From Escherichia phage HMD-P3, in the sequence record PQ462667.1: a stretch of DNA of 64,000 nt. The stretch is one strand, 5' to 3'. The translations under genes and the position numbers were made by a program. Under the pieces are notes generated by a model. The model did no database searches. It was not told the origin of the DNA and worked only from the letters and a program-made list of their open reading frames with translations. Shown here one piece after another: positions 226-7,324 of the stretch; position 1 is the first letter of the stretch, and every line of letters begins with the position of its first letter.

Positions 226-501
226 TTAGTCGAACTTAGGAGTGACAGTTAAGGAGAACGGAAGTTCAAAAACTTCTTCGCCCTCATCACTAACAGTGAT
301 TACACGACCTTTAAGTTCAGACATTGAAATATCAATATCAGCTTTTGCATCTGGAGCCATGCCAGCTTCAACACATTTAGCTTTAATTTCCGGCAGAAGT
401 TCTACATCGTAGAAATAAAGCCATTCAATCTCACCTTCCCAGCCTTCCCAGGATTTACAGATTGCACTTTCAATACCAGCTGCTATAACACGATTTTGCA
501 T
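226..501 (-). CDS. hypothetical protein (91 aa)
   Basis: Intact ORF in the minus-strand early block; no recognisable motif. Confidence 0.45.
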   Translation of the reverse strand: MQNRVIAAGIESAICKSWEGWEGEIEWLYFYDVELLPEIKAKCVEAGMAPDAKADIDISMSELKGRVITVSDEGEEVFELPFSLTVTPKFD

Positions 502-591
502 TCGTTAACTCCTTCATCAATTTATACAACTATTATACCAGAAATTTAAAGCAAAAGGCAAGTACATTTTTAAAAATTCTGTTTGGAGGAG

Positions 592-798
592 CTAAACTCC
601 AGATTCTTCAGCCAAGTCTAGACTAATAAGAGATATAGCCATAATTGCCGCTCCATGTTCTTTTTCTCCAGTCTCTTTAGCTAGAGTTATAATGTCAAGA
701 AATTGCTTATGAAAATCTGCAACCTCTTGAGTTATACCTGCCTCAGCAATCATGCCTTTAAGCATGAAACGTTGTGCTGTAATTTCAGGATTAGCCAT
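592..798 (-). CDS. hypothetical protein (68 aa)
   Basis: ORF co-oriented with neighbours; start overlaps the stop of a possible small upstream ORF (TAATG-type coupling). Confidence 0.4.
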   Translation of the reverse strand: MANPEITAQRFMLKGMIAEAGITQEVADFHKQFLDIITLAKETGEKEHGAAIMAISLISLDLAEESGV

Positions 799-973
799 GT
801 TGTTTCTCCAGTTTCATCTTTAATAATCTACAAATAAAATCAATGTCTTCATCCGTGCCTAGATCTCTGTCTTCAAGAGTTGCCTTGAAGTTTTTAGTCA
901 ATTCCATGAGGATAACTTCCCTAGAACGACGTGTTGGCGGAGGTGGATGTCTATACATCTTATTTCCTTAATT

Positions 974-1050
974 TGGTAGGGGTGGTGGGATTCGAACCCA
1001 CAAAACCTGAATTTTAAGTCCAGTACCTATGCCAATTCGATTACACCCCC
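974..1050 (-). tRNA. tRNA, anticodon loop CUUAAAA (anticodon possibly UAA, isotype uncertain)
   Basis: Minus-strand sense GGGGGTG...GTGGGTTCGAATCCCAC...CACCCCTACCA: acceptor stem, T-arm with GGTTCGAATCC, encoded CCA, 5-bp anticodon stem CTGGA/TTCAG. Confidence 0.7.
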
Positions 1051-1151
1051 ATGTAATCAGTTTATTAGTTGATACATATTATAGCCTAGTGAAAATCCTA
1101 CTACTAGTCCTACAAACCAACCAATATAATAATCTTTTAGTTTCACAGGTA

Positions 1152-1337
1152 TTATCCTCGTTCAATATCTAGGGAAATACCGCAGTTAGGATTAATACCT
1201 GTACCCTTGCAATTTGGGCAAACCCAGATATTGCAAAAAGTATCTCCTGCTTCTGCATCAGAACTTTCACCAATTCCCCTACACTCAGGGCAGGCACATT
1301 CTTCTAGCTCTTGCTTGAGTTCTTGAAACTTAGACAT
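1152..1337 (-). CDS. small DnaJ-type zinc-finger protein (61 aa)
   Basis: Two CxxCxGxG motifs (CPECRGIG, CPNCKGTG) plus further Cys pairs. Confidence 0.45.
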   Translation of the reverse strand: MSKFQELKQELEECACPECRGIGESSDAEAGDTFCNIWVCPNCKGTGINPNCGISLDIERG

Positions 1338-1346
1338 AAAGTCTCC

Positions 1347-1535
1347 TTAGTCAATTACTTTTGAGGCTTCAAGGTAGTCGATATAGTGTACGTTTTCTAC
1401 CGTAATCATATAATCAGCCACTTTATCCATAGCTTGGGCTTCAGAGGTAGCTCTGGCTAACCTATATCCTTTTTTATATTCATCCGGGTATTCTCTATCT
1501 TGAATAAACACAACATAAACTATATATAGATCCAT
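1347..1535 (-). CDS. hypothetical protein (62 aa)
   Basis: ORF between tRNA genes, co-oriented; no motif. Confidence 0.35.
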   Translation of the reverse strand: MDLYIVYVVFIQDREYPDEYKKGYRLARATSEAQAMDKVADYMITVENVHYIDYLEASKVID

Positions 1536-1553
1536 TTGTGACCTCTATTTAAT

Positions 1554-1631
1554 TGGTGGCTCCCCGAGGATTCGAACCTACGTACCTTCCGGTTATGAGC
1601 CGGGTGCTCATACCATATGAGCTTGAGAACC
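1554..1631 (-). tRNA. tRNA-Met/Ile2-like (anticodon CAT)
   Basis: Sense GGTTCTC...CCGG-CTCATAA-CCGG...GGTTCGAATCC...GGGAGCC-A-CCA; anticodon loop CUCAUAA; acceptor pairs with two G-U wobbles; T-stem has one bulge. Confidence 0.7.
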
Positions 1632-1637
1632 AAAATC

Positions 1638-1726
1638 TGGCGGAAGAAGTGGGAATCGAACCCACAAGGCTATATTTCAAACCGACAGATTAGCAATCTG
1701 CTGCAATACCGTTATGCTATTCTTCC
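1638..1726 (-). tRNA. tRNA-Ser (anticodon GCT), type II with long variable arm
   Basis: Sense GGAAGAA...GCAGA-TTGCTAA-TCTGT, long variable arm GGTTTGAAATATAGCC, T-arm GTGGGTTCGATTCCCAC, acceptor TTCTTCC-G-CCA. Confidence 0.8.
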
Positions 1727-1747
1727 GAATTTATAAGATATATTATA

Positions 1748-2317
1748 TTAGAAATTTAGCTTCATAGCAAGAAAATTTTTCAAGTTTTCGGTAGACATCT
1801 CATCCACATCTACAGGAGAAACAAATCCATTTAATTGTCTAGCAAACTTTTCACCAGCAGGATCGTTGTCCCCAACAGCTACTAATTTGAAAGGTAATAA
1901 TTTCAGTTGCTTTAATAACGCTTTTCCTGGAGAAGAACCCAGCATTGCCAGGGCTGGATAACCAGCATTATGTAATGCAACTGCCTTAAATACAGATTCA
2001 GCAATCAATACTACTTTTTCATCTCCATTGAGAGTTTCTAGTCCCCATACACACTGTGTAGTGGAGTAGGTAAAATATTTAGCCTCAAAGGGGCACTTAC
2101 CATGCCCTTTTGGAGCAGAAGGATTATACGTCTGATAGCCCCGCAACATCCCAGAGAAGTCATACAATGGGACTGTTAGCCACCCTTCCGGGCTTAACCA
2201 GCAATGATATTTATCTGTATCAAATCCTCTAGATAAGAGGTGCTGTGTTAGCTCATCAACATTCATATTTGGTTCCTCTCTCAAATTTATAGATATATTA
2301 TACAGAGAATTTAGCAT
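1748..2317 (-). CDS. Toprim-domain protein (189 aa)
   Basis: C-terminal half VVLIAESVFKAVALHNAGYPALAMLGSSPG...KLVAVGDNDPAGEKFA matches the Toprim E...DxD pattern of DnaG-type primases; no zinc-binding or helicase-interaction region. Confidence 0.55.
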   Translation of the reverse strand: MLNSLYNISINLREEPNMNVDELTQHLLSRGFDTDKYHCWLSPEGWLTVPLYDFSGMLRGYQTYNPSAPKGHGKCPFEAKYFTYSTTQCVWGLETLNGDEKVVLIAESVFKAVALHNAGYPALAMLGSSPGKALLKQLKLLPFKLVAVGDNDPAGEKFARQLNGFVSPVDVDEMSTENLKNFLAMKLNF

Positions 2318-2340
2318 TCAAGCAATCAAATTTTTTAACT
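2283..2340 (-). promoter_or_regulatory. T5-type early promoter (minus strand)
   Basis: Reverse complement carries the recurring ...tttgattgcttgaatgctaaattctctgtataatatatctataaattt... architecture shared with about 10 other intergenic copies. Confidence 0.55.
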
Positions 2341-2441
2341 TTTTAGAGGAAAATCATAGGGCACTTAAGGGTAGCAGATAAGTGGTGAGGACCAAAATTT
2401 GTGACTCCACTAAAAATCCGGGGGCAATTTTTAAAGACCCC

Positions 2442-2470
2442 TTGACATTTTTGTTGGGGTAGTGTAAAGT
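2442..2470 (+). promoter_or_regulatory. sigma70-type promoter (TTGACA, 17-bp spacer, TG-extended TAAAGT)
   Basis: cTTGACAtttttgttggggtagTGTAAAGTat directly upstream of the plus-strand cassette; differs from the T5 early promoter family used elsewhere. Confidence 0.55.
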
Positions 2471-2532
2471 ATATGTTATGGATGAGTGATCAAAGAGACA
2501 CACATTTTCTATATACTAGGAGGTGTCAAAAA

Positions 2533-3525
2533 ATGACAGAAGAAGTAGCTAAGAGTCCTGAGACCGTCGCTAGCGTTGCAGCAGAACTGCACCGTCACGA
2601 GGAATCAGATAAGAAAAAGTGGGAGAAGGTCAGAGCCTACGAAGAAAAACATCGTGAACACGATGAAGATGATGAAGAAGATGACGATGATGAACATTGT
2701 CATAAATATGGAAAACATAAAATGCAAGAACCAGTAAACGTATTCACTAGTGGCTTCCCTGGCCTAATGGGCGGTTACCCAGCAAACGCAGGTGCTTTTG
2801 GTGGTGAAGGTATGGGTCTATTCGGAGCTATCCTAATCGGTGCTCTATTAACAGGCGGATTCGGTGGTTTCGGTGGATTCGGTGGACGTGGTGTAGTTGG
2901 TGATGGTAGCGCAGTTGATGCAGTGCTTCAGAATCAAGATACCGCTAGTATTCTAGCAGCTATTAACACTACTCGTACAGAAGCTAATCAGGGTACTGGA
3001 GCTGTTTTAAGCGCAGTTAATAATGGTTTTAGCCAGACATCCCAAAACCAGAGCCGTGATACTCAGTCTGTACTAACTACGATCTATGGTACGGGTGCTA
3101 ATCTGTCTAATCAAATCTGCCAGGAAACTCGCAACGTTATTCAGGGTCAGTTCGATCTTTCTCGCCAGATTGATCAATCTTTCGCAGCTAACCAGATAGC
3201 TCGTGCACAAGATAAGTTTGATTCTGCACAGATCGCTTTCCAGCAGACTTTACAAACTAATAACCAGTTTGCAGCTGTTCAGGCTCAGATGTGTGCTAAC
3301 CAGAACTCTCTGGAACGTCAGATCGCTGAATGTTGCTGTGAACTTCAGACTGCGATCGCTGGTGTAACTACTGCACGTATCCAGGACGAGTTAGACGCAT
3401 GTCGCCTACGTGAAGCAATCGCTGCGGGTAGTGGTGCTAACGGTCAGGTAATTAATCAAATCGCTTTAAGTCTTGGTGCTATCACTCAGACTCTGGCTGG
3501 TCTGCAGGCTAAACTGCCGGCTTAA
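2533..3525 (+). CDS. low-complexity protein: acidic/His-rich N-terminus, glycine-zipper hydrophobic segment, Q/N/A-rich C-terminal domain (about 330 aa from the RBS-supported start)
   Basis: Strong RBS (AGGAGG) 7 nt before ATG at 2533 (the track ORF begins at 2473 without an RBS); segment GLFGAILIGALLTGGFGGFGGFGGRG; CCC and further Cys in the C-terminal part. Confidence 0.55.
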   Translation: MTEEVAKSPETVASVAAELHRHEESDKKKWEKVRAYEEKHREHDEDDEEDDDDEHCHKYGKHKMQEPVNVFTSGFPGLMGGYPANAGAFGGEGMGLFGAILIGALLTGGFGGFGGFGGRGVVGDGSAVDAVLQNQDTASILAAINTTRTEANQGTGAVLSAVNNGFSQTSQNQSRDTQSVLTTIYGTGANLSNQICQETRNVIQGQFDLSRQIDQSFAANQIARAQDKFDSAQIAFQQTLQTNNQFAAVQAQMCANQNSLERQIAECCCELQTAIAGVTTARIQDELDACRLREAIAAGSGANGQVINQIALSLGAITQTLAGLQAKLPA

Positions 3526-3546
3526 TATTAAGGGGAGGAGCCCATT

Positions 3547-3963
3547 ATGAGTAAATATGGTTTTGTAAATAACGGACTTAATCAAAGTATGGGCTCCCAG
3601 CAGCCCATTCCAGGTCTGGATAACCCCTACTTACAACAGTTGCAACAGCGTTTAGCAGAAGCGCAACAGATGCAGCAACAACTCCAGCAAAATCCTAGAA
3701 GTGTGAGTCCTATACAAATGATGCAGCAAATGAGCGGGCAGTCGCAAATGCCTCAACAAATGCAGCAACAGATGCCGCAGCAGCAAGTTCAGCAACAAAC
3801 CCAACAACCGCAGGTTTCTGCGGAAGGACAGGCAGTACTAGCCCTTTTCGAAGACTTCGCAAAGACAGAGGATGGGAAGCAGCTTGTATCACTTATGGGT
3901 AAGTTTAATAGCTTCTGCCAAAGCCAAATTGCAAAAGCTCAAAATAGCGGTGATAACTCCTAA
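3547..3963 (+). CDS. glutamine-rich low-complexity protein (138 aa)
   Basis: RBS GGGGAGG upstream; about 35% Q in the central region (QQMQQQLQQ..., PQQMQQQMPQQQVQQQTQQPQ). Confidence 0.5.
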   Translation: MSKYGFVNNGLNQSMGSQQPIPGLDNPYLQQLQQRLAEAQQMQQQLQQNPRSVSPIQMMQQMSGQSQMPQQMQQQMPQQQVQQQTQQPQVSAEGQAVLALFEDFAKTEDGKQLVSLMGKFNSFCQSQIAKAQNSGDNS

Positions 3964-3972
3964 GGAGGAATT

Positions 3973-4167
3973 ATGTGTTGCAGAAAATCTGTTTCGTGCT
4001 GCCCAATGCCTGTAGCACGTTGTTGCTCTCCAGCAATGTTTACGCAAATACCGGCGTTCAATCCGTTTGCCTTTAAGCCTACTCTTATCCTGCCCCCTAG
4101 AGTAGATTTTCAGTCAAGATTGGCCTCCCGTATGGGTGGTTGCTGTACACCGAGAGTGTGGTTCTAA
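3973..4167 (+). CDS. small cysteine-pair-rich protein (64 aa)
   Basis: RBS AAGGAGG upstream; four CC dipeptides (MCC, SCC, RCC, GCC). Confidence 0.4.
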   Translation: MCCRKSVSCCPMPVARCCSPAMFTQIPAFNPFAFKPTLILPPRVDFQSRLASRMGGCCTPRVWF

Positions 4168-4180
4168 ACCAAAAAACAAA

Positions 4181-4215
4181 AGCCCCTGCCGAAAGGTAAG
4201 GGGCTTTTTCTTTTG
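4181..4215 (+). terminator. rho-independent terminator
   Basis: Stem agcccct/aggggct with 11-nt loop followed by tttttctttt. Confidence 0.65.
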
Positions 4216-4219
4216 CCTT

Positions 4220-4259
4220 AAATACAGAAAAGCCCGCGCTCTCAGAGGAAACGCGGGCT
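4220..4259 (-). terminator. rho-independent terminator for the SPFH gene
   Basis: Perfect 8-bp stem agcccgcg/cgcgggct; on the minus strand it is followed by a U-run (revcomp of acagaaa). Confidence 0.6.
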
Positions 4260-4283
4260 TGGTTAGAAGATTACGTGTAACTA

Positions 4284-5231
4284 TTACTTGTTACGCATAT
4301 CCATGATCATTTGACCATCGTAGCCAGTACCTACCACAGTCTGAGGCACACCACCTTGATACTTCTGAGCACGAATCATTTCAACTTCCAGTTGCTTCCA
4401 GCGAATCATCTCAGGAGTAATGGTACGTTGCAATGCGGCGTTAGCTTCAGCTTCTTTTTTAGCTGCGTACAGTTTAGCATCTGCGTCACGTTCATTAGCA
4501 ATAGCTTGGTTGTTGCGAGCTTCACGATCTGCTTCTGCTTGTTTAACTTTTTGCTGTGCTTCCTGTTCAACGCGGGCAAGTTCAGCTTTCGCAGCGTTAA
4601 CTTGCTCTTCACGAACTTTGGTATTCTGTACCTGTTCCATGATTACCGGTGGCAAAGTAATATCCTGAAGAAACACCTGCTTAACTGTGTAACCATATGG
4701 GCGTGCATACTCTTCAACTTCCTGTTGAATTGCAGTTTGCAATTGAGCCTGAATTTTAGCATCAAACAAATCTTGTGCTTTAGGTACAGACTTACCAAAC
4801 TCACGAATAGTAGACAGTAATTTTTCAGTTACATATTTGTCTAATGCTTGATCCTGGGTACCTGCATTAATACGGTTAATCGGTGCCTTAGAACCATCAA
4901 ACTGCAACATAACAGTCAGGTCAACAGTGGATTTAAACTTATCCTGACTAGGAACCTGAAGTTTATCTAATTTTAGAGCAATATCTTTAGTACTAAAAGT
5001 ATCGAAAGAAGCAAAAGGATTTACAATATGAAAGCCGGGTAATACTGGGCTAGGGTCAACTTTACCCAGGAAAGTCTGGGTTTTAACAGTACCGTCTTGG
5101 ACAACAGTATAAGAGTTAAGAGCCAGAACTAAACCTACCAAACCAACTGCAGCACCAATACCCCAACGTTTGATATTACGCATTAATTTTTGCTCATAAG
5201 TCAGTTCTTTAGTGTTTTTAGTAGCAAACAT
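4284..5231 (-). CDS. SPFH/band-7 (prohibitin/HflK/C-like) membrane protein
   Basis: N-terminal TM helix (WGIGAAVGLVGLVLAL), central SPFH-like region, C-terminal charged coiled coil (EQVNAAKAELARVEQEAQQKVKQAEADREARN...). Confidence 0.65.
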   Translation of the reverse strand: MFATKNTKELTYEQKLMRNIKRWGIGAAVGLVGLVLALNSYTVVQDGTVKTQTFLGKVDPSPVLPGFHIVNPFASFDTFSTKDIALKLDKLQVPSQDKFKSTVDLTVMLQFDGSKAPINRINAGTQDQALDKYVTEKLLSTIREFGKSVPKAQDLFDAKIQAQLQTAIQQEVEEYARPYGYTVKQVFLQDITLPPVIMEQVQNTKVREEQVNAAKAELARVEQEAQQKVKQAEADREARNNQAIANERDADAKLYAAKKEAEANAALQRTITPEMIRWKQLEVEMIRAQKYQGGVPQTVVGTGYDGQMIMDMRNK

Positions 5232-5265
5232 ATATTTCCTTTGTTTTAGTTACAGTTAATAAAAT

Positions 5266-5340
5266 TGGCCGAGGTGACAGGATTCGAACCTGCATAAAGG
5301 AATTTAGAAGACTCCTGCCTCTCCCTTAGACTACACCTCG
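5266..5340 (-). tRNA. tRNA-Arg (anticodon TCT)
   Basis: Sense CGAGGTG...GGAGT-CTTCTAA-ATTCC...GCAGGTTCGAATCCTGT-CACCTCG-G-CCA; anticodon loop CUUCUAA. Confidence 0.8.
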
Positions 5341-5832
5341 TTTAAGTATTTTTAAGAACTCTCGTAAAAACTCTTAAAAATACAGACGATACCGGGAGAG
5401 TCATAAGTCTCACTCATTAAGTATTTCAAGACAAAATACGGTAACGTCTACTATTTTCCAGTTTAAGTCAGGGTGACTTAGTGGTTATGTCCTGCGGTAT
5501 ATTGAGGACTCGGTTAGGCTCGGGGTCATGACTTCCCGCCTTTTGCTGCTACTCAACAGGAGTTATCGCGAATTACCTGTGCTATTGTGCACCATTAGTG
5601 ACATCTCTCATGCCAGCATTTCCCACTTTGTGGATAGCTTGAAAAACTACTCCGATATGGAGAAAGAACTTCACTATCCTAGAATACCTTCTAAAGTTCT
5701 TCTTTAGCCTGGACATAGTTAAATCGTAATAAAACTATTCAGCAGACTGGTTGGTTAGTCTGGAACCAACTACCGCGTGGTTTAGGCAGTGCGCAACTAA
5801 CCTCGGAAGCTTTTACTTTAAAAGCATCAGTT

Positions 5833-5914
5833 ATCCAGTTCTTACCGACCATAGGATTCGAACCTACATCTTCCACCAGTTACGGCTTGATAATACCAAT
5901 TATACTAGGACGGC
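5833..5914 (-). tRNA. tRNA-like element (perfect T-arm, imperfect acceptor, anticodon arm not resolved)
   Basis: Sense contains GTAGGTTCGAATCCTAT and acceptor-like GCCGTCC/GGTCGGT with one mismatch; no clean cloverleaf by eye. Could be a divergent or degenerate tRNA. Confidence 0.4.
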
Positions 5915-6129
5915 AGTGTTACTACATAAGTGATTTCCACACCCCACTATTTATAAATTAGAGAAGAGTTTAGGGGAGAGGTTTCAGACGCCTCATTTTA
6001 CACGTTCTAGCCACTAACCGGGATTGCCGCCCCCTGTGTACTAGTTTTACAACTAACCCACCGACTCTATTCAATGCGCTTCGGTTGGGATTATGCATTC
6101 AGCGTAATCGGCTCGCTGTTCCCTAATTT

Positions 6130-6178
6130 ATGAATATATTATACAGAATTTAAAGGCATTTAGCAAATAAATTTTTAA
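6130..6178 (-). promoter_or_regulatory. T5-type early promoter (minus strand) upstream of the tRNA-containing transcription unit
   Basis: Reverse complement aaaatttatttgctaaatgcctttaaattctgtataatatattcataaatt closely resembles T5 PN25 (-35 TTGCTa, -10 TATAAT, A/T-rich upstream). Confidence 0.6.
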
Positions 6179-6618
6179 TTAAATTCGCCAGCAATCTGAG
6201 CAGCAGTACCACCATCATAACGCCCAGGAAATTCTTCCTTAATCGCTTTCATCAGCATACCTTTTGTAATTCCAGGGTTTAGCTTAACTAATTCTGCAAA
6301 GTATTTACGAATCTCAGTATCAGATAACTGAGGAGGCAGATACTCCTGCAACCACTTATTTAGAATGTATTCATACTGAGCAGACTGCAAGCTATAGCTA
6401 TCAAGATCTTGACCATGAAGTTTAGCTTTCATCTGGTTAATGCTTTTTAGTTGAGCTTTGAGATAAGACACAAATTGTTCAGAAGTGATGAAATCTTTAT
6501 CAATACGCTGAAGATCCCCGATTATGGTCTGATAACTTTTAGCGACTTCTTTATCAGAACCATTAAACTTAGAATCCTGCAAAGCTCTACGCAAAACATC
6601 TAAAATATTCTCTTCCAT
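6175..6618 (-). CDS. GatB/YqeY-domain protein
   Basis: C-terminal YLPPQLSDTEIRKYFAELVKLNPGITKGMLMKAIKEEFPGRYDGGTAAQIAGEF matches the GatB/YqeY pattern. Confidence 0.6.
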   Translation of the reverse strand: MEENILDVLRRALQDSKFNGSDKEVAKSYQTIIGDLQRIDKDFITSEQFVSYLKAQLKSINQMKAKLHGQDLDSYSLQSAQYEYILNKWLQEYLPPQLSDTEIRKYFAELVKLNPGITKGMLMKAIKEEFPGRYDGGTAAQIAGEFN

Positions 6619-6788
6619 TATTTCATTCCTAGCGCTTGGTTAAAAGATTGTTCTGTCATAACTGCTGAGACTTTGGCGAAATCAAACTTTTTAGGGTTCG
6701 TAGTGATTTCAGCAACGTTAGAAGTTTTAACAGTTTTCGTAGTACGAATACCGCGAGTGTTAACACCAATAATTACAACTGATTTCAT
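6618..6788 (-). CDS. possible small ORF (56 aa), translationally coupled to the GatB/YqeY gene
   Basis: ATG preceded by GAGAGG; stop overlaps the downstream start (ATGAAATAATG); below the 60-aa track cutoff. Confidence 0.3.
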   Translation of the reverse strand: MKSVVIIGVNTRGIRTTKTVKTSNVAEITTNPKKFDFAKVSAVMTEQSFNQALGMK

Positions 6789-6807
6789 ACTTCGCTTCCT
6801 CTCATTA

Positions 6808-6862
6808 ATTTATGGAAGTATTATACGGAAATTTAAGTAGTTAAGCAAGTAAATTTTTAAGT
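6808..6862 (-). promoter_or_regulatory. T5-type early promoter (minus strand)
   Basis: Reverse complement cttaaaaatttacttgcttaactacttaaatttccgtataatacttccataa. Confidence 0.55.
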
Positions 6863-7324
6863 TTTAGTGACAACAGGTTTATAGAATGTATGTCCCTTAA
6901 TTTTAGTTGTTTTCTTAAATTTCTTTGTCCAGTAAGGTTTATCTTTACCACTATGGAAGTATAGTGCTCCATGTGTAGGATCTTGTGGTAAATCAACGTA
7001 GTATATCACTCTAGCTAAATTCTTAGCGGTTTGCCAAGCCTCATCAGTTTTATCAACTTTTGGTCTCTTAGATACCCAAGAGAACTGGTTAGACTGATAT
7101 ACTACTTTACAGTAGGAATCTGGGAATTTACCGGAGTTTACACGGTTTTTAGTAACATGTGCAATCGCCGTCATTCCCTTTATGCCCTCACCACGACTTT
7201 CGAAATAGATATTTTTAGCAATGCAATCTATTTCTTTTGCATCGTGCGATGCCTGACTACTAAAGCTGAAGGTAAGGGCAGCTACTAAAAGCAAAGCTGC
7301 CTTCATTCTTTTTACTCCTGCCAA
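6857..7324 (-). CDS. secreted cell-wall hydrolase, SleB-like
   Basis: N-terminal signal peptide (MKAALLLVAALTFSFSSQA); core IAKNIYFESRGEGIKGMTAIAHVTKNRV...VVYQSNQFSW matches the SleB-type cell-wall hydrolase signature. Confidence 0.65.
   Translation of the reverse strand: MAGVKRMKAALLLVAALTFSFSSQASHDAKEIDCIAKNIYFESRGEGIKGMTAIAHVTKNRVNSGKFPDSYCKVVYQSNQFSWVSKRPKVDKTDEAWQTAKNLARVIYYVDLPQDPTHGALYFHSGKDKPYWTKKFKKTTKIKGHTFYKPVVTKT

Follow-up and report, generated by a model that had tools for sequence, protein, structure and literature searches.

The window analysed here is a 64,000-nucleotide (nt) stretch of the genome of Escherichia phage HMD-P3 (PQ462667.1), and the element in question, RNAX, is a gene of about 790 nt that occupies positions 5341–6131 and is read from the minus strand, as are all features below unless stated otherwise. 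The window as a whole is 97–99% identical to Tequintaviruses; its first 20 kilobases (kb) match T5-like phages (Demerecviridae, Tequintavirus) at 94–98% identity, among them fp01, HMD-P5, SSP1 and T5_ev219, and a nucleotide search with the RNAX interval plus its flanks matches 580 phage records. The gene stands behind an early promoter (6138–6166; TTGCTA, a 17-nt spacer and TATAAT; 10 of 12 matches in a promoter scan) which is annotated as a promoter, 'P16-17', in T5 and BF23 and is kept in all RNAX homologs. Transcription presumably starts at the A of AUAAAUU (position 6131), by analogy with T5 early promoters; the BF23 annotation of the gene maps to 6124–5341. On the other side follow a tRNA-Arg(UCU) with an encoded CCA (5266–5340; called by ARAGORN, Rfam score 51.2 bits), an open reading frame (ORF) of the SPFH/band-7 family (4284–5231; Pfam Band_7, E=2.5e-17) and a terminator (4230–4260) which was found in a terminator scan and at which the T5 record places an efficient bidirectional terminator. 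The same scan finds no other minus-strand terminator between the RNAX promoter and 4260–4230, and so none between RNAX and tRNA-Arg. Because the promoter at 6166–6138 is followed by this sole minus-strand terminator at 4260–4230, RNAX, tRNA-Arg and the SPFH ORF are probably carried on one early transcript, and the interval is an RNA gene within a tRNA transcription unit, as a preliminary description made from the sequence alone had placed it.

The T5 record (AY543070) annotates the stretch from promoter P 16-17 to tRNA-Arg as a misc_RNA, rnaX, of 719 nt, and the GenBank text 'RNAX, stable RNA with unknown functions' is found in the entries for T5, BF23 (AJ604530) and DT571/2 (NC_047749). The window interval is 97.2% identical over 790 nt to the rnaX of BF23 (784 nt), 95.7% identical over 80% to that of DT571/2 and 92.2% identical over 80% to that of T5, and the layout of promoter, RNAX and tRNA-Arg(UCU) on the same strand is common to the window, T5 and BF23. 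The interval is an ortholog of the annotated rnaX. The existence of the RNA is thus already known from three GenBank entries, which give coordinates and the note; they name no structure, family or function and leave the embedded tRNA-shaped domain described below unmarked. A second T5 record (AY587007) marks just a pseudo-tRNA at the locus, and newer records give that element as 'tRNA-OTHER', 'tRNA-Sec' or pseudo and place scattered 'hypothetical proteins' in the remainder; the 'atypical tRNA' of the preliminary description is this commonly mis-annotated part of RNAX. The literature searched contained no relevant paper on RNAX or rnaX, T5 stable RNAs or T5 transcriptomes, and neither it nor Rfam 15 held RNAX as a family, its conservation across several genera, an architecture backed by covariation or its grouping with the large tRNA-island RNAs of phages.

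The interval had been described as roughly 780 bp without a credible ORF, and between tRNA-Arg and the promoter there are indeed only ORFs of 42–60 amino acids (aa) on either strand; no ORF conserved across lineages was found in it. ARAGORN calls three tRNAs in the window and none within 5345–6125. The Rfam tRNA model (RF00005, gathering score 29) adds two, at 1557–1631 (40.3 bits) and at 5843–5914 (33.7 bits, E=0.003), and detects no further tRNA remnant in the interval even at E≤10; the interval contains a single borderline element of this kind. This is the tRNA-like element of the preliminary description, real but bounded by 5843–5914 rather than 5833–5914. Its T arm is canonical (GUAGG/CCUAU with the loop UUCGAAU and one G.U pair), its acceptor stem is mismatched (a G1.U72 pair and a U5.U68 mismatch) and it has no clean anticodon arm, 18 nt being left unaligned to the Rfam tRNA model and showing, by eye, a 3-bp stem with a 6-nt loop; all three traits had been noticed from the sequence. 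The suggestion drawn from them, of degenerate tRNAs or tRNA-derived small RNAs, holds insofar as one tRNA-shaped element is present; the tRNA-like part amounts to only ~72 of ~790 nt and is integrated in a larger fold. Rfam scans of the window and of 14 homologous loci bring no family other than tRNA to threshold, in the homologous loci as in the window, and all other matches fall far below their gathering scores. Transfer-messenger RNA (tmRNA), RNase P RNA, group I and II introns, 6S RNA and known small RNAs were rejected on this ground, and ARAGORN finds no tmRNA.

Homologous loci were compared from T5, nine Epseptimaviruses (including Yersinia phiR2-01), four Klebsiella Sugarlandviruses, Pectobacterium DU_PP_V (Mccorquodalevirinae), Proteus VTCCBPA139 (Novosibvirus) and Providencia PR1 (Priunavirus). 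The genera with RNAX homologs are Tequinta-, Epseptima-, Sugarland-, Hongcheon-, Novosib- and Priunavirus, and in every compared locus the same promoter precedes a stretch devoid of conserved ORFs. The 3' hairpin is present in 34 homologs, and in these the RNA measures 640–1290 nt between its inferred start and that hairpin. Identity to the window drops to 70–80% in patches and then under BLAST detection, with a series of islands persisting: AUAGUGGGGUGUCGAA, AACACUGCC...GGAAAGA, AAACCACG and AAAGUGGGAAA, and further along GGAGUCAUGACC, AUAACCAC, AAGUCACCYUGACUU, UAAACUGGAAGAUA and the 38-nt 3' hairpin. The segments between islands vary in sequence and length, and insertions and deletions are frequent and do not come in threes. 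RNAX consists of conserved sequence islands separated by covarying helices. A motif scan of metagenomes returned 67 loci, 12 of which are true RNAX by the covariance model described below; the remaining ones are chance matches, since the motif specifies just 17 bases. A scan of viral contigs returned almost only known isolates.

The best supported part of the RNA is a module in which a bracket helix (5826–5934; 5921–5934 with 5826–5839, 12 bp) carries the tRNA-shaped domain (5843–5914), joining its acceptor stem via an invariant internal loop, AACACU/AAGA (5915–5920 and 5840–5843). A hand-written structure of this module was placed on a 17-sequence MAFFT alignment and compared with controls in which the 3' partners were slid by 1–3 columns, and with 500 shuffles. 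As drawn, 91% of cells are paired (32–42% in the slid controls) and 20 of the 37 pairs have changed on both sides (1–5 in the controls); on four of the five measures no shuffle among the 500 reached the observed value, and on the fifth, 'further standard pair types', 108 did so, counts that for related and mosaic sequences such as these are not probabilities. A covariance model derived from this alignment finds exactly one strong match per genome, which in the window lies at 5797–5939 (minus strand, 157.7 bits), and it picks up the homologs of the Yersinia (99.7 bits), Proteus (62.1 bits) and Providencia (58.9 bits) phages. The resulting alignment of 27 sequences from six genera, which is fitted to its own model and leans toward that structure, is 92.7% paired against 31–42% in slid controls, with 30 of 37 pairs changed on both sides and 0 of 500 shuffles as high on any of the five measures. 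Within it the bracket helix is 99.4% paired with nine pairs changed on both sides, the T stem is 97% paired with four covarying pairs, and the adjoining hairpin H2 (GCUUUU...AAAAGC, 5809–5825, 6 bp) is 93% paired with four pairs changed on both sides. A global alignment of the whole of RNAX with RNAalifold was dropped as too gappy, modules being inserted, deleted and permuted, and the analysis was made module by module. Conservation and covariation of the interval are far beyond chance.

G.U pairs are frequent in this alignment (one bracket-helix pair is U.G in 17 of 26 sequences), and the covarying ones therefore fit RNA of the transcribed, sense strand only. This bears on an explanation in which the interval is conserved for small coding ORFs or for an element that acts as DNA, such as a protein-binding site or an origin. 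Some records do annotate its 42–60 aa ORFs as 'hypothetical proteins', and both GTCATGAC and the 3' hairpin form palindromes or inverted repeats at the DNA level, possible sites for a dimeric protein. Against this stand not only the sense-strand G.U pairs but also the ORFs themselves, which are shared no further than among close relatives and overlie conserved RNA modules, some of them antisense, and the insertions and deletions that ignore the reading frame. We give such an explanation very little credence.

The tRNA-shaped domain has acceptor, D and T arms, and its orthologs score 26.6–38.3 bits with the Rfam tRNA model, whose alignment fits all three arms well and flags the U.U acceptor mismatch and a non-standard D-stem pair. 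The features of a tRNA elbow are present: a GGUUCGAAUCC-type T loop (GUAGG-UUCGAAU-CCUAU) and a D loop with GG (AAUUGGU). The acceptor stem covaries, reading GCCGUCC/GGUCGGU in the window and CUGAC/GUCAG in phiR2-01. It departs from that of a canonical tRNA, with pair 1:72 unpaired in 14 of 27 sequences and pair 5:68 in 17 of 26, and these oddities are themselves conserved, 1:72 being G.U or G.A and 5:68 a mismatch. The 3' side reads A-AGA and not CCA, which the neighbouring tRNA-Arg does encode. An anticodon arm with a 5-bp stem, a 7-nt loop and a shared anticodon is not found. The window and Sugarlandvirus pzk-kv7 have a 3–4-bp stem with a 6-nt loop (GCC/GGU in the window, by eye), IME260 has an extended arm of 30 nt, phiR2-01 a 6-bp stem with the loop GCGAA, and KFSSM a truncated arm; the anticodons that ARAGORN assigns to orthologs are Ser-ACT in T5, SeC-TCA in SE24 and 26175I and Leu-TAG in DU_PP_V. 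Because the anticodon calls are inconsistent, the arm is remodelled or the whole domain replaced, and CCA is lacking, the domain is unlikely to be a decoder, and because it is capped by the 12-bp covarying helix we regard it as an integrated module of a larger fold. It appears, then, to be a structural or recognition module with the tRNA elbow, neither decoder nor decaying pseudogene.

Decay is what a simpler account would propose, that is, a pseudo-tRNA and junk spacer left from tRNA genes and having no function of their own. The one borderline tRNA match, annotated as pseudo or tRNA-OTHER, agrees with it, as do the dispensability of the region in the T5 deletion mutant st0 and the gain and loss of genes in the tRNA island. 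Debris of this kind should not have a dedicated conserved promoter or keep its non-tRNA parts across subfamilies with compensatory changes, and a single tRNA-like segment is found even at E≤10; covariation largely refutes this account and leaves it highly improbable.

More serious is the possibility that RNAX is mainly a precursor, from which RNase P and 3'-trimming enzymes (e.g. RNase Z) would excise the tRNA-shaped element, with a further cut at tRNA-Arg. The products would possibly be a 5' fragment of ~215 nt, a tRNA-like RNA of ~75 nt and a 3' fragment of ~500 nt, and these would be the functional species, which is compatible with a structured RNAX. This is the closest version of the tRNA-derived small RNAs of the preliminary description. 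The domain keeps the acceptor/T-arm stack, G18G19 and the canonical T loop, the features that RNase P recognises, and the T5 record lists further 'tRNA-like stable RNAs' of this island, RNA2 and RNA3. The ends of the domain run, however, into the conserved internal loop and the 12-bp covarying helix, which suggests that the flanks stay attached; it carries no CCA, a plain hairpin substitutes for it in several lineages that keep the rest of RNAX, and the annotators of T5 and BF23 give a single RNA of 719–784 nt. On balance we consider a mainly precursor role unlikely, while ranking it first among the alternatives.

The tRNA-like module is embedded in domain 2 (5777–5947), which is closed by a long-range helix, GUGG (5944–5947) with CCAC (5777–5780). 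Compensatory variants of this helix are AUGG/CCAU in YZU-L1, ACGG/CCGU in DU_PP_V and AUGGGU/ACCCAU in Proteus VTCCBPA139, the YZU-L1 variant settling which G motif pairs with which C motif. Two hairpins (5750–5803), AGGU...GCCU (5784–5803) and GUUGGUU...AACCAAC (5750–5770), flank the conserved AAACCACGCGG motif, and their apparent compensatory variants, read from alignments, are GGCAG/CUGCC, GACAG/CUGUC and GUUGAUU/AAUCAAC. An H-type pseudoknot at 5743–5770 (CAGACU/AGUCUG) is not claimed, as it can be drawn for Tequintavirus sequences only. In VTCCBPA139 the motif AAACCCAUUAAUAAUUC, partner of the 5' AUGGGU, is tandemly duplicated (locus L054, 6375–6415), and the order of modules differs from that of T5-type RNAX, the palindromic hairpin coming ahead of the bracket-helix module.

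Upstream of domain 2 lies the 5' domain (5955–6129), defined by helix P1 between the 5' end of RNAX and UCYCUAAUUU (6120–6129, AAAUUAGGGA, with 5955–5964, UCUCUAAUUU); one isolate (L033) shows a compensatory GAUG/CAUC change in P1. The variable insert enclosed by P1 (5965–6119) likely holds a hairpin-loop pseudoknot of GCCGAUU with AGUCGG, and this pairing covaries, being CCGA/UCGG in one set of sequences and CAGA/UCUG in DU_PP_V and the Proteus phage. The 5' domain of SE24 and KFSSM has given way to a homing-endonuclease ORF. Such an ORF follows directly after the RNAX promoter in some Epseptimaviruses (SE24, L007, 674–1200; KFSSM, L014, 717–1199; L051), and both it and the 169-aa ORF described below look mobile.

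The 3' half begins with domain 4 (5480–5627), closed by AGUGG (5623–5627) with CCACU (5480–5484); the closing pair is conserved and reads AUGG/CCGU in DU_PP_V, with weaker support than the other helices have. It contains the variable hairpin h3 (GUCCU...AGGAC, 5489–5509), in which all five pairs have changed on both sides and 90% of cells are paired, and the hairpin h2 (5516–5541), which bears the GGAGUCAUGACC motif and has changed on both sides in five of the eight pairs of its outer stem. Hairpin h4 (AAGUCA CCC UGACUU, 5465–5479) follows, near-invariant in sequence and 93% paired, with no covariation. The loop of h2 presents an 8-nt palindrome, GUCAUGAC (5525–5532), which occurs exactly once per complete RNAX in Tequinta-, Epseptima-, Sugarland-, Hongcheon- and Novosibvirus. 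This invariant palindromic loop hints that RNAX molecules may associate with one another. A different 8-nt palindrome of Providencia PR1, ACCUAGGU, which has the spacing that GUCAUGAC has in the Proteus phage, was not counted as covariation, as the shared CCUAGG and outer stem point to loss of the hairpin tip. In T5, RNAX lacks the 147-nt 5' domain of the window and has an insertion of ~82 nt in its 3' domain (L006, about 1700–1810; after window position ~5465), which is missing from the window and all other lineages. A ~24-nt direct duplication of the conserved motif AGUCACCUUGAC(U/A)UAAACUGGAA flanks this insertion and looks like the target-site duplication left by a small mobile insertion.

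Next comes a three-way-junction domain (5377–5457), in which the helix of AGACGUUACC (5440–5449) with GGUAUCGUCU (5384–5393) encloses two hairpins. Tequintavirus and Epseptimavirus differ here and each can be drawn, by eye, as a long helix around two hairpins; they are not alignable by column, and the junction is described qualitatively. The RNA ends in an AU-rich hairpin (5346–5383; 17 bp with a UACG loop) and a UUAAA linker (5341–5345). This hairpin is 96% paired and 92–100% identical across three subfamilies while the rest of RNAX diverges. One of its positions (U in the window; C in Epseptimavirus, Sugarlandvirus and DU_PP_V) lacks a matching partner within the hairpin in 8 of 12 sequences, and it covaries with the upstream GGAAGAUA motif, as G-C in seven sequences and A-U in four. 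A candidate closing helix for the junction, AAAAUA (5452–5457) with UAUUUU (5377–5382), contains one covarying pair, which suggests that an alternative helix may close the three-way junction and that two mutually exclusive pairings exist; these could possibly act as a conformational switch around RNase P processing.

A switch at this position would also suit a leader acting in cis, one that determines how the downstream tRNA-Arg and SPFH mRNA are processed, stabilised or expressed and has no function in trans, and the co-transcription of RNAX with both, no terminator intervening, points the same way. The link to tRNA-Arg is not fixed, however. In Epseptimavirus, phiR2-01 included, a 169-aa ORF without a Pfam match lies between the 3' hairpin and tRNA-Arg (L007, 1787–2296; L010, 1972–2481; L053, ~5713–6233), and in Sugarlandvirus and PR1 the two are separated by 500–700 nt with ORFs. 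Moreover, 640–1290 nt with many covarying domains far exceeds the needs of known leaders, and the T5 annotators label RNAX a stable RNA. A purely cis-acting role seems to us less likely still than that of a precursor, though better founded than tRNA decay or a coding or DNA-level origin of the conservation.

Large structured RNAs are rare in bacteria and phages (the main examples are rRNA, group II introns, RNase P RNA, OLE, GOLLD, ROOL, HEARO and raiA), and those of known function perform sophisticated biochemistry. Modules shaped like tRNA also occur in or near larger RNAs, as in mascRNA at the 3' end of MALAT1, the tRNA-like domain of the bacterial YrlA Y RNAs and the species 1 and 2 RNAs from the tRNA cluster of T4. 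RNAX resembles these in having an acceptor/T-arm/D-arm fold without a decoding anticodon loop, placed by a longer non-coding RNA and tRNA genes; it differs in that its module sits on a 12-bp covarying stem in an RNA of ~0.8 kb and that a plain hairpin can take the module's place. The closer parallels are GOLLD and ROOL (Rumen-Originating, Ornate, Large), large RNAs of phages and prophages that are often found near tRNA islands (PMC12286853; PMC5737381). The 3' region of GOLLD is conserved, its 5' region varies, and its linker sometimes contains tRNAs; its function is unknown (PMC12286853). Both RNAs form homo-oligomeric RNA-only nanocages held together partly by kissing loops, some of them symmetric, with palindromes that covary or are invariant (PMC12286853), and ROOL, to whose cage a conserved symmetric kissing loop contributes, is abundant yet non-essential and has no known protein partner (PMC5737381, PMC12286853).

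RNAX shares with GOLLD a length above 600 nt, a multi-domain structure supported by covariation, a place in a tRNA island, a conserved 3' and variable 5' part and an embedded tRNA-like element. With ROOL it shares dispensability and proximity to tRNAs, and it has an invariant palindromic loop. Membership in either family was rejected, as there is no Rfam match to GOLLD (at E≤10 in window 500–7000 and E≤1 in the 14 homologous loci) or to ROOL (in the window and the same 14 loci). The agreement in layout with GOLLD is a resemblance in kind rather than homology, since the GOLLD model does not match. The hosts also differ, Lactobacillales, Mycobacterium and environmental ones for GOLLD as against phages of Enterobacterales for RNAX, and whereas oligomers of GOLLD and ROOL have been seen, and ROOL is known to be abundant and multimeric, RNAX is known here from its sequence. 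We would class RNAX as a new family of the GOLLD/ROOL kind and a member of neither.

Taken together, we assign a probability of about 0.8 to the reading in which RNAX, encoded by this interval, is a large, modular and structured non-coding RNA of the T5-like phages (Demerecviridae); that it works as a scaffold of the GOLLD/ROOL kind is speculative. RNAX would be transcribed from P16-17 along with tRNA-Arg and the SPFH mRNA, and RNase P, cutting at the 5' end of tRNA-Arg, would set its 3' end near 5341, leaving the conserved 3' hairpin as a block to exonucleases. The tRNA-shaped domain could offer its acceptor/T-arm 'elbow' to tRNA-binding factors, without decoding, since its anticodon arm varies freely and can be lost. 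More speculatively, RNAX may be a stable scaffold or particle of the GOLLD/ROOL kind, may self-associate through the GUCAUGAC loop, and may act on tRNA-related machinery of host or phage from within the phage tRNA island.

Several observations weigh against this reading or some part of it. In predicted folding energy RNAX does no better than its shuffled versions (z = -1.33 for the sense and -0.84 for the antisense strand), and because this thermodynamic score is unremarkable the case for structure rests on the comparative evidence, which carries the limits given above for related, mosaic sequences and for an alignment fitted to its own model. Individual modules are also dispensable. The 5' insert is missing in T5, where P1 is a simple hairpin; a different hairpin replaces the whole tRNA-shaped domain in GSW6 and BSP22A; in the Proteus and Providencia phages the bracket helix bears a plain hairpin, with a T-arm-like hairpin elsewhere, and the 3' hairpin is missing; and in Providencia PR1 the tip of h2 appears deleted. 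The deletion of the viable T5 mutant st0 takes in all of the gene, and RNAX is therefore dispensable in the laboratory. Its standing as a stable RNA goes back to the GenBank note, the ideas of an oligomer, a decoy or a protein partner are speculative, and in two Vibrio Demerecviridae loci the YqeY-like gene that often neighbours RNAX has no RNAX beside it.

In its boldest form the proposal is that RNAX is a third, independent class of giant phage RNA of the GOLLD/ROOL type, belonging to phages of Enterobacterales: a stable particle, RNA-only or assisted by the YqeY-like protein, that self-associates via GUCAUGAC, displays its embedded tRNA-shaped domain and targets host machinery that recognises tRNAs or else defences directed against them. 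We offer this tentatively and doubt that it will hold in full. If it did, the function of giant RNAs could be tested by genetics, RNAX being present in T5/BF23-type phages of Escherichia coli and Salmonella and deletable. The hosts of GOLLD and ROOL are awkward to work with, while T5-like phages are classical and tractable and come with natural deletion mutants; should RNAX work as GOLLD and ROOL do, the question of why phages carry giant RNAs by their tRNAs would become testable in E. coli. Defining the family would, in addition, clear hundreds of spurious annotations from Demerecviridae records ('hypothetical protein', 'tRNA-OTHER', 'tRNA-Sec') and supply RNA family databases with a missing model.

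Upstream of RNAX (6175–6788) lie a DUF7616 gene and, directly adjacent, the YqeY-like gene (T5.081; 6175–6618), which scores 25.4 bits with the Pfam YqeY model, under the 27-bit cut-off; a profile of six homologs aligns full-length with the YqeY structure PDB 1ng6 (E=0.0025). Both YqeY and GatB-tail domains serve as modules that bind tRNA (PMC1865053, PMC2811023), and the product is a possible protein partner of RNAX. Homologs of the gene lie just upstream of RNAX in four lineages, including DU_PP_V and the Proteus and Providencia phages. A specific linkage to RNAX was rejected, as the gene is absent from the Sugarlandvirus loci, which have RNAX, and is found without RNAX, among ordinary tRNAs, in Vibrio phages; its association may be with the tRNA island in general rather than with RNAX. 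The free-standing YqeY-like (GatB-tail-like) gene is a conserved resident of the tRNA island in Demerecviridae, Vibrio phages included (window 6175–6618, minus strand; L125, 2719–3162; L126, 2809–3213), and is named 'tRNA amidotransferase' or 'recombination-related exonuclease' in public records. The two Vibrio loci, which have no recognisable RNAX, show unannotated gaps of 300–335 nt between tRNA-Pro and tRNA-Leu (L125, 1316–1618; L126, 765–1100) that could hold another non-coding RNA.

Two further tRNAs of the window had been described as unusual, and rightly so; the covariance model calls both. The one at 1557–1631 (minus strand; 40.3 bits, missed by ARAGORN) has an extra base in the T stem. 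Its anticodon is CAU, and records call it tRNA-Met or, in T5, tRNA-Ile2(CAU). The ortholog works in translation, since the T5 record notes that an anticodon change converts it to an amber suppressor. The one at 974–1050 (minus strand; 57.4 bits) has the anticodon UAA (Leu) on a short-variable-arm scaffold of 74–77 nt with discriminator A, unlike the usual long-arm tRNA-Leu of bacteria, and near the matching position T5 carries a homing-endonuclease gene, hegA. On the opposite strand, just past the bidirectional terminator, are two unusual small ORFs annotated in relatives as hypothetical only. The first (3547–3963, plus strand) encodes 138 aa with a long glutamine-rich tract (QQLQQ..., MQQQMPQQQVQQQTQQ), and the second (3973–4167, plus strand) a cysteine-rich peptide of 64 aa (MCCRKSVSCCPMPVARCCSP...GGCCTPRVWF).

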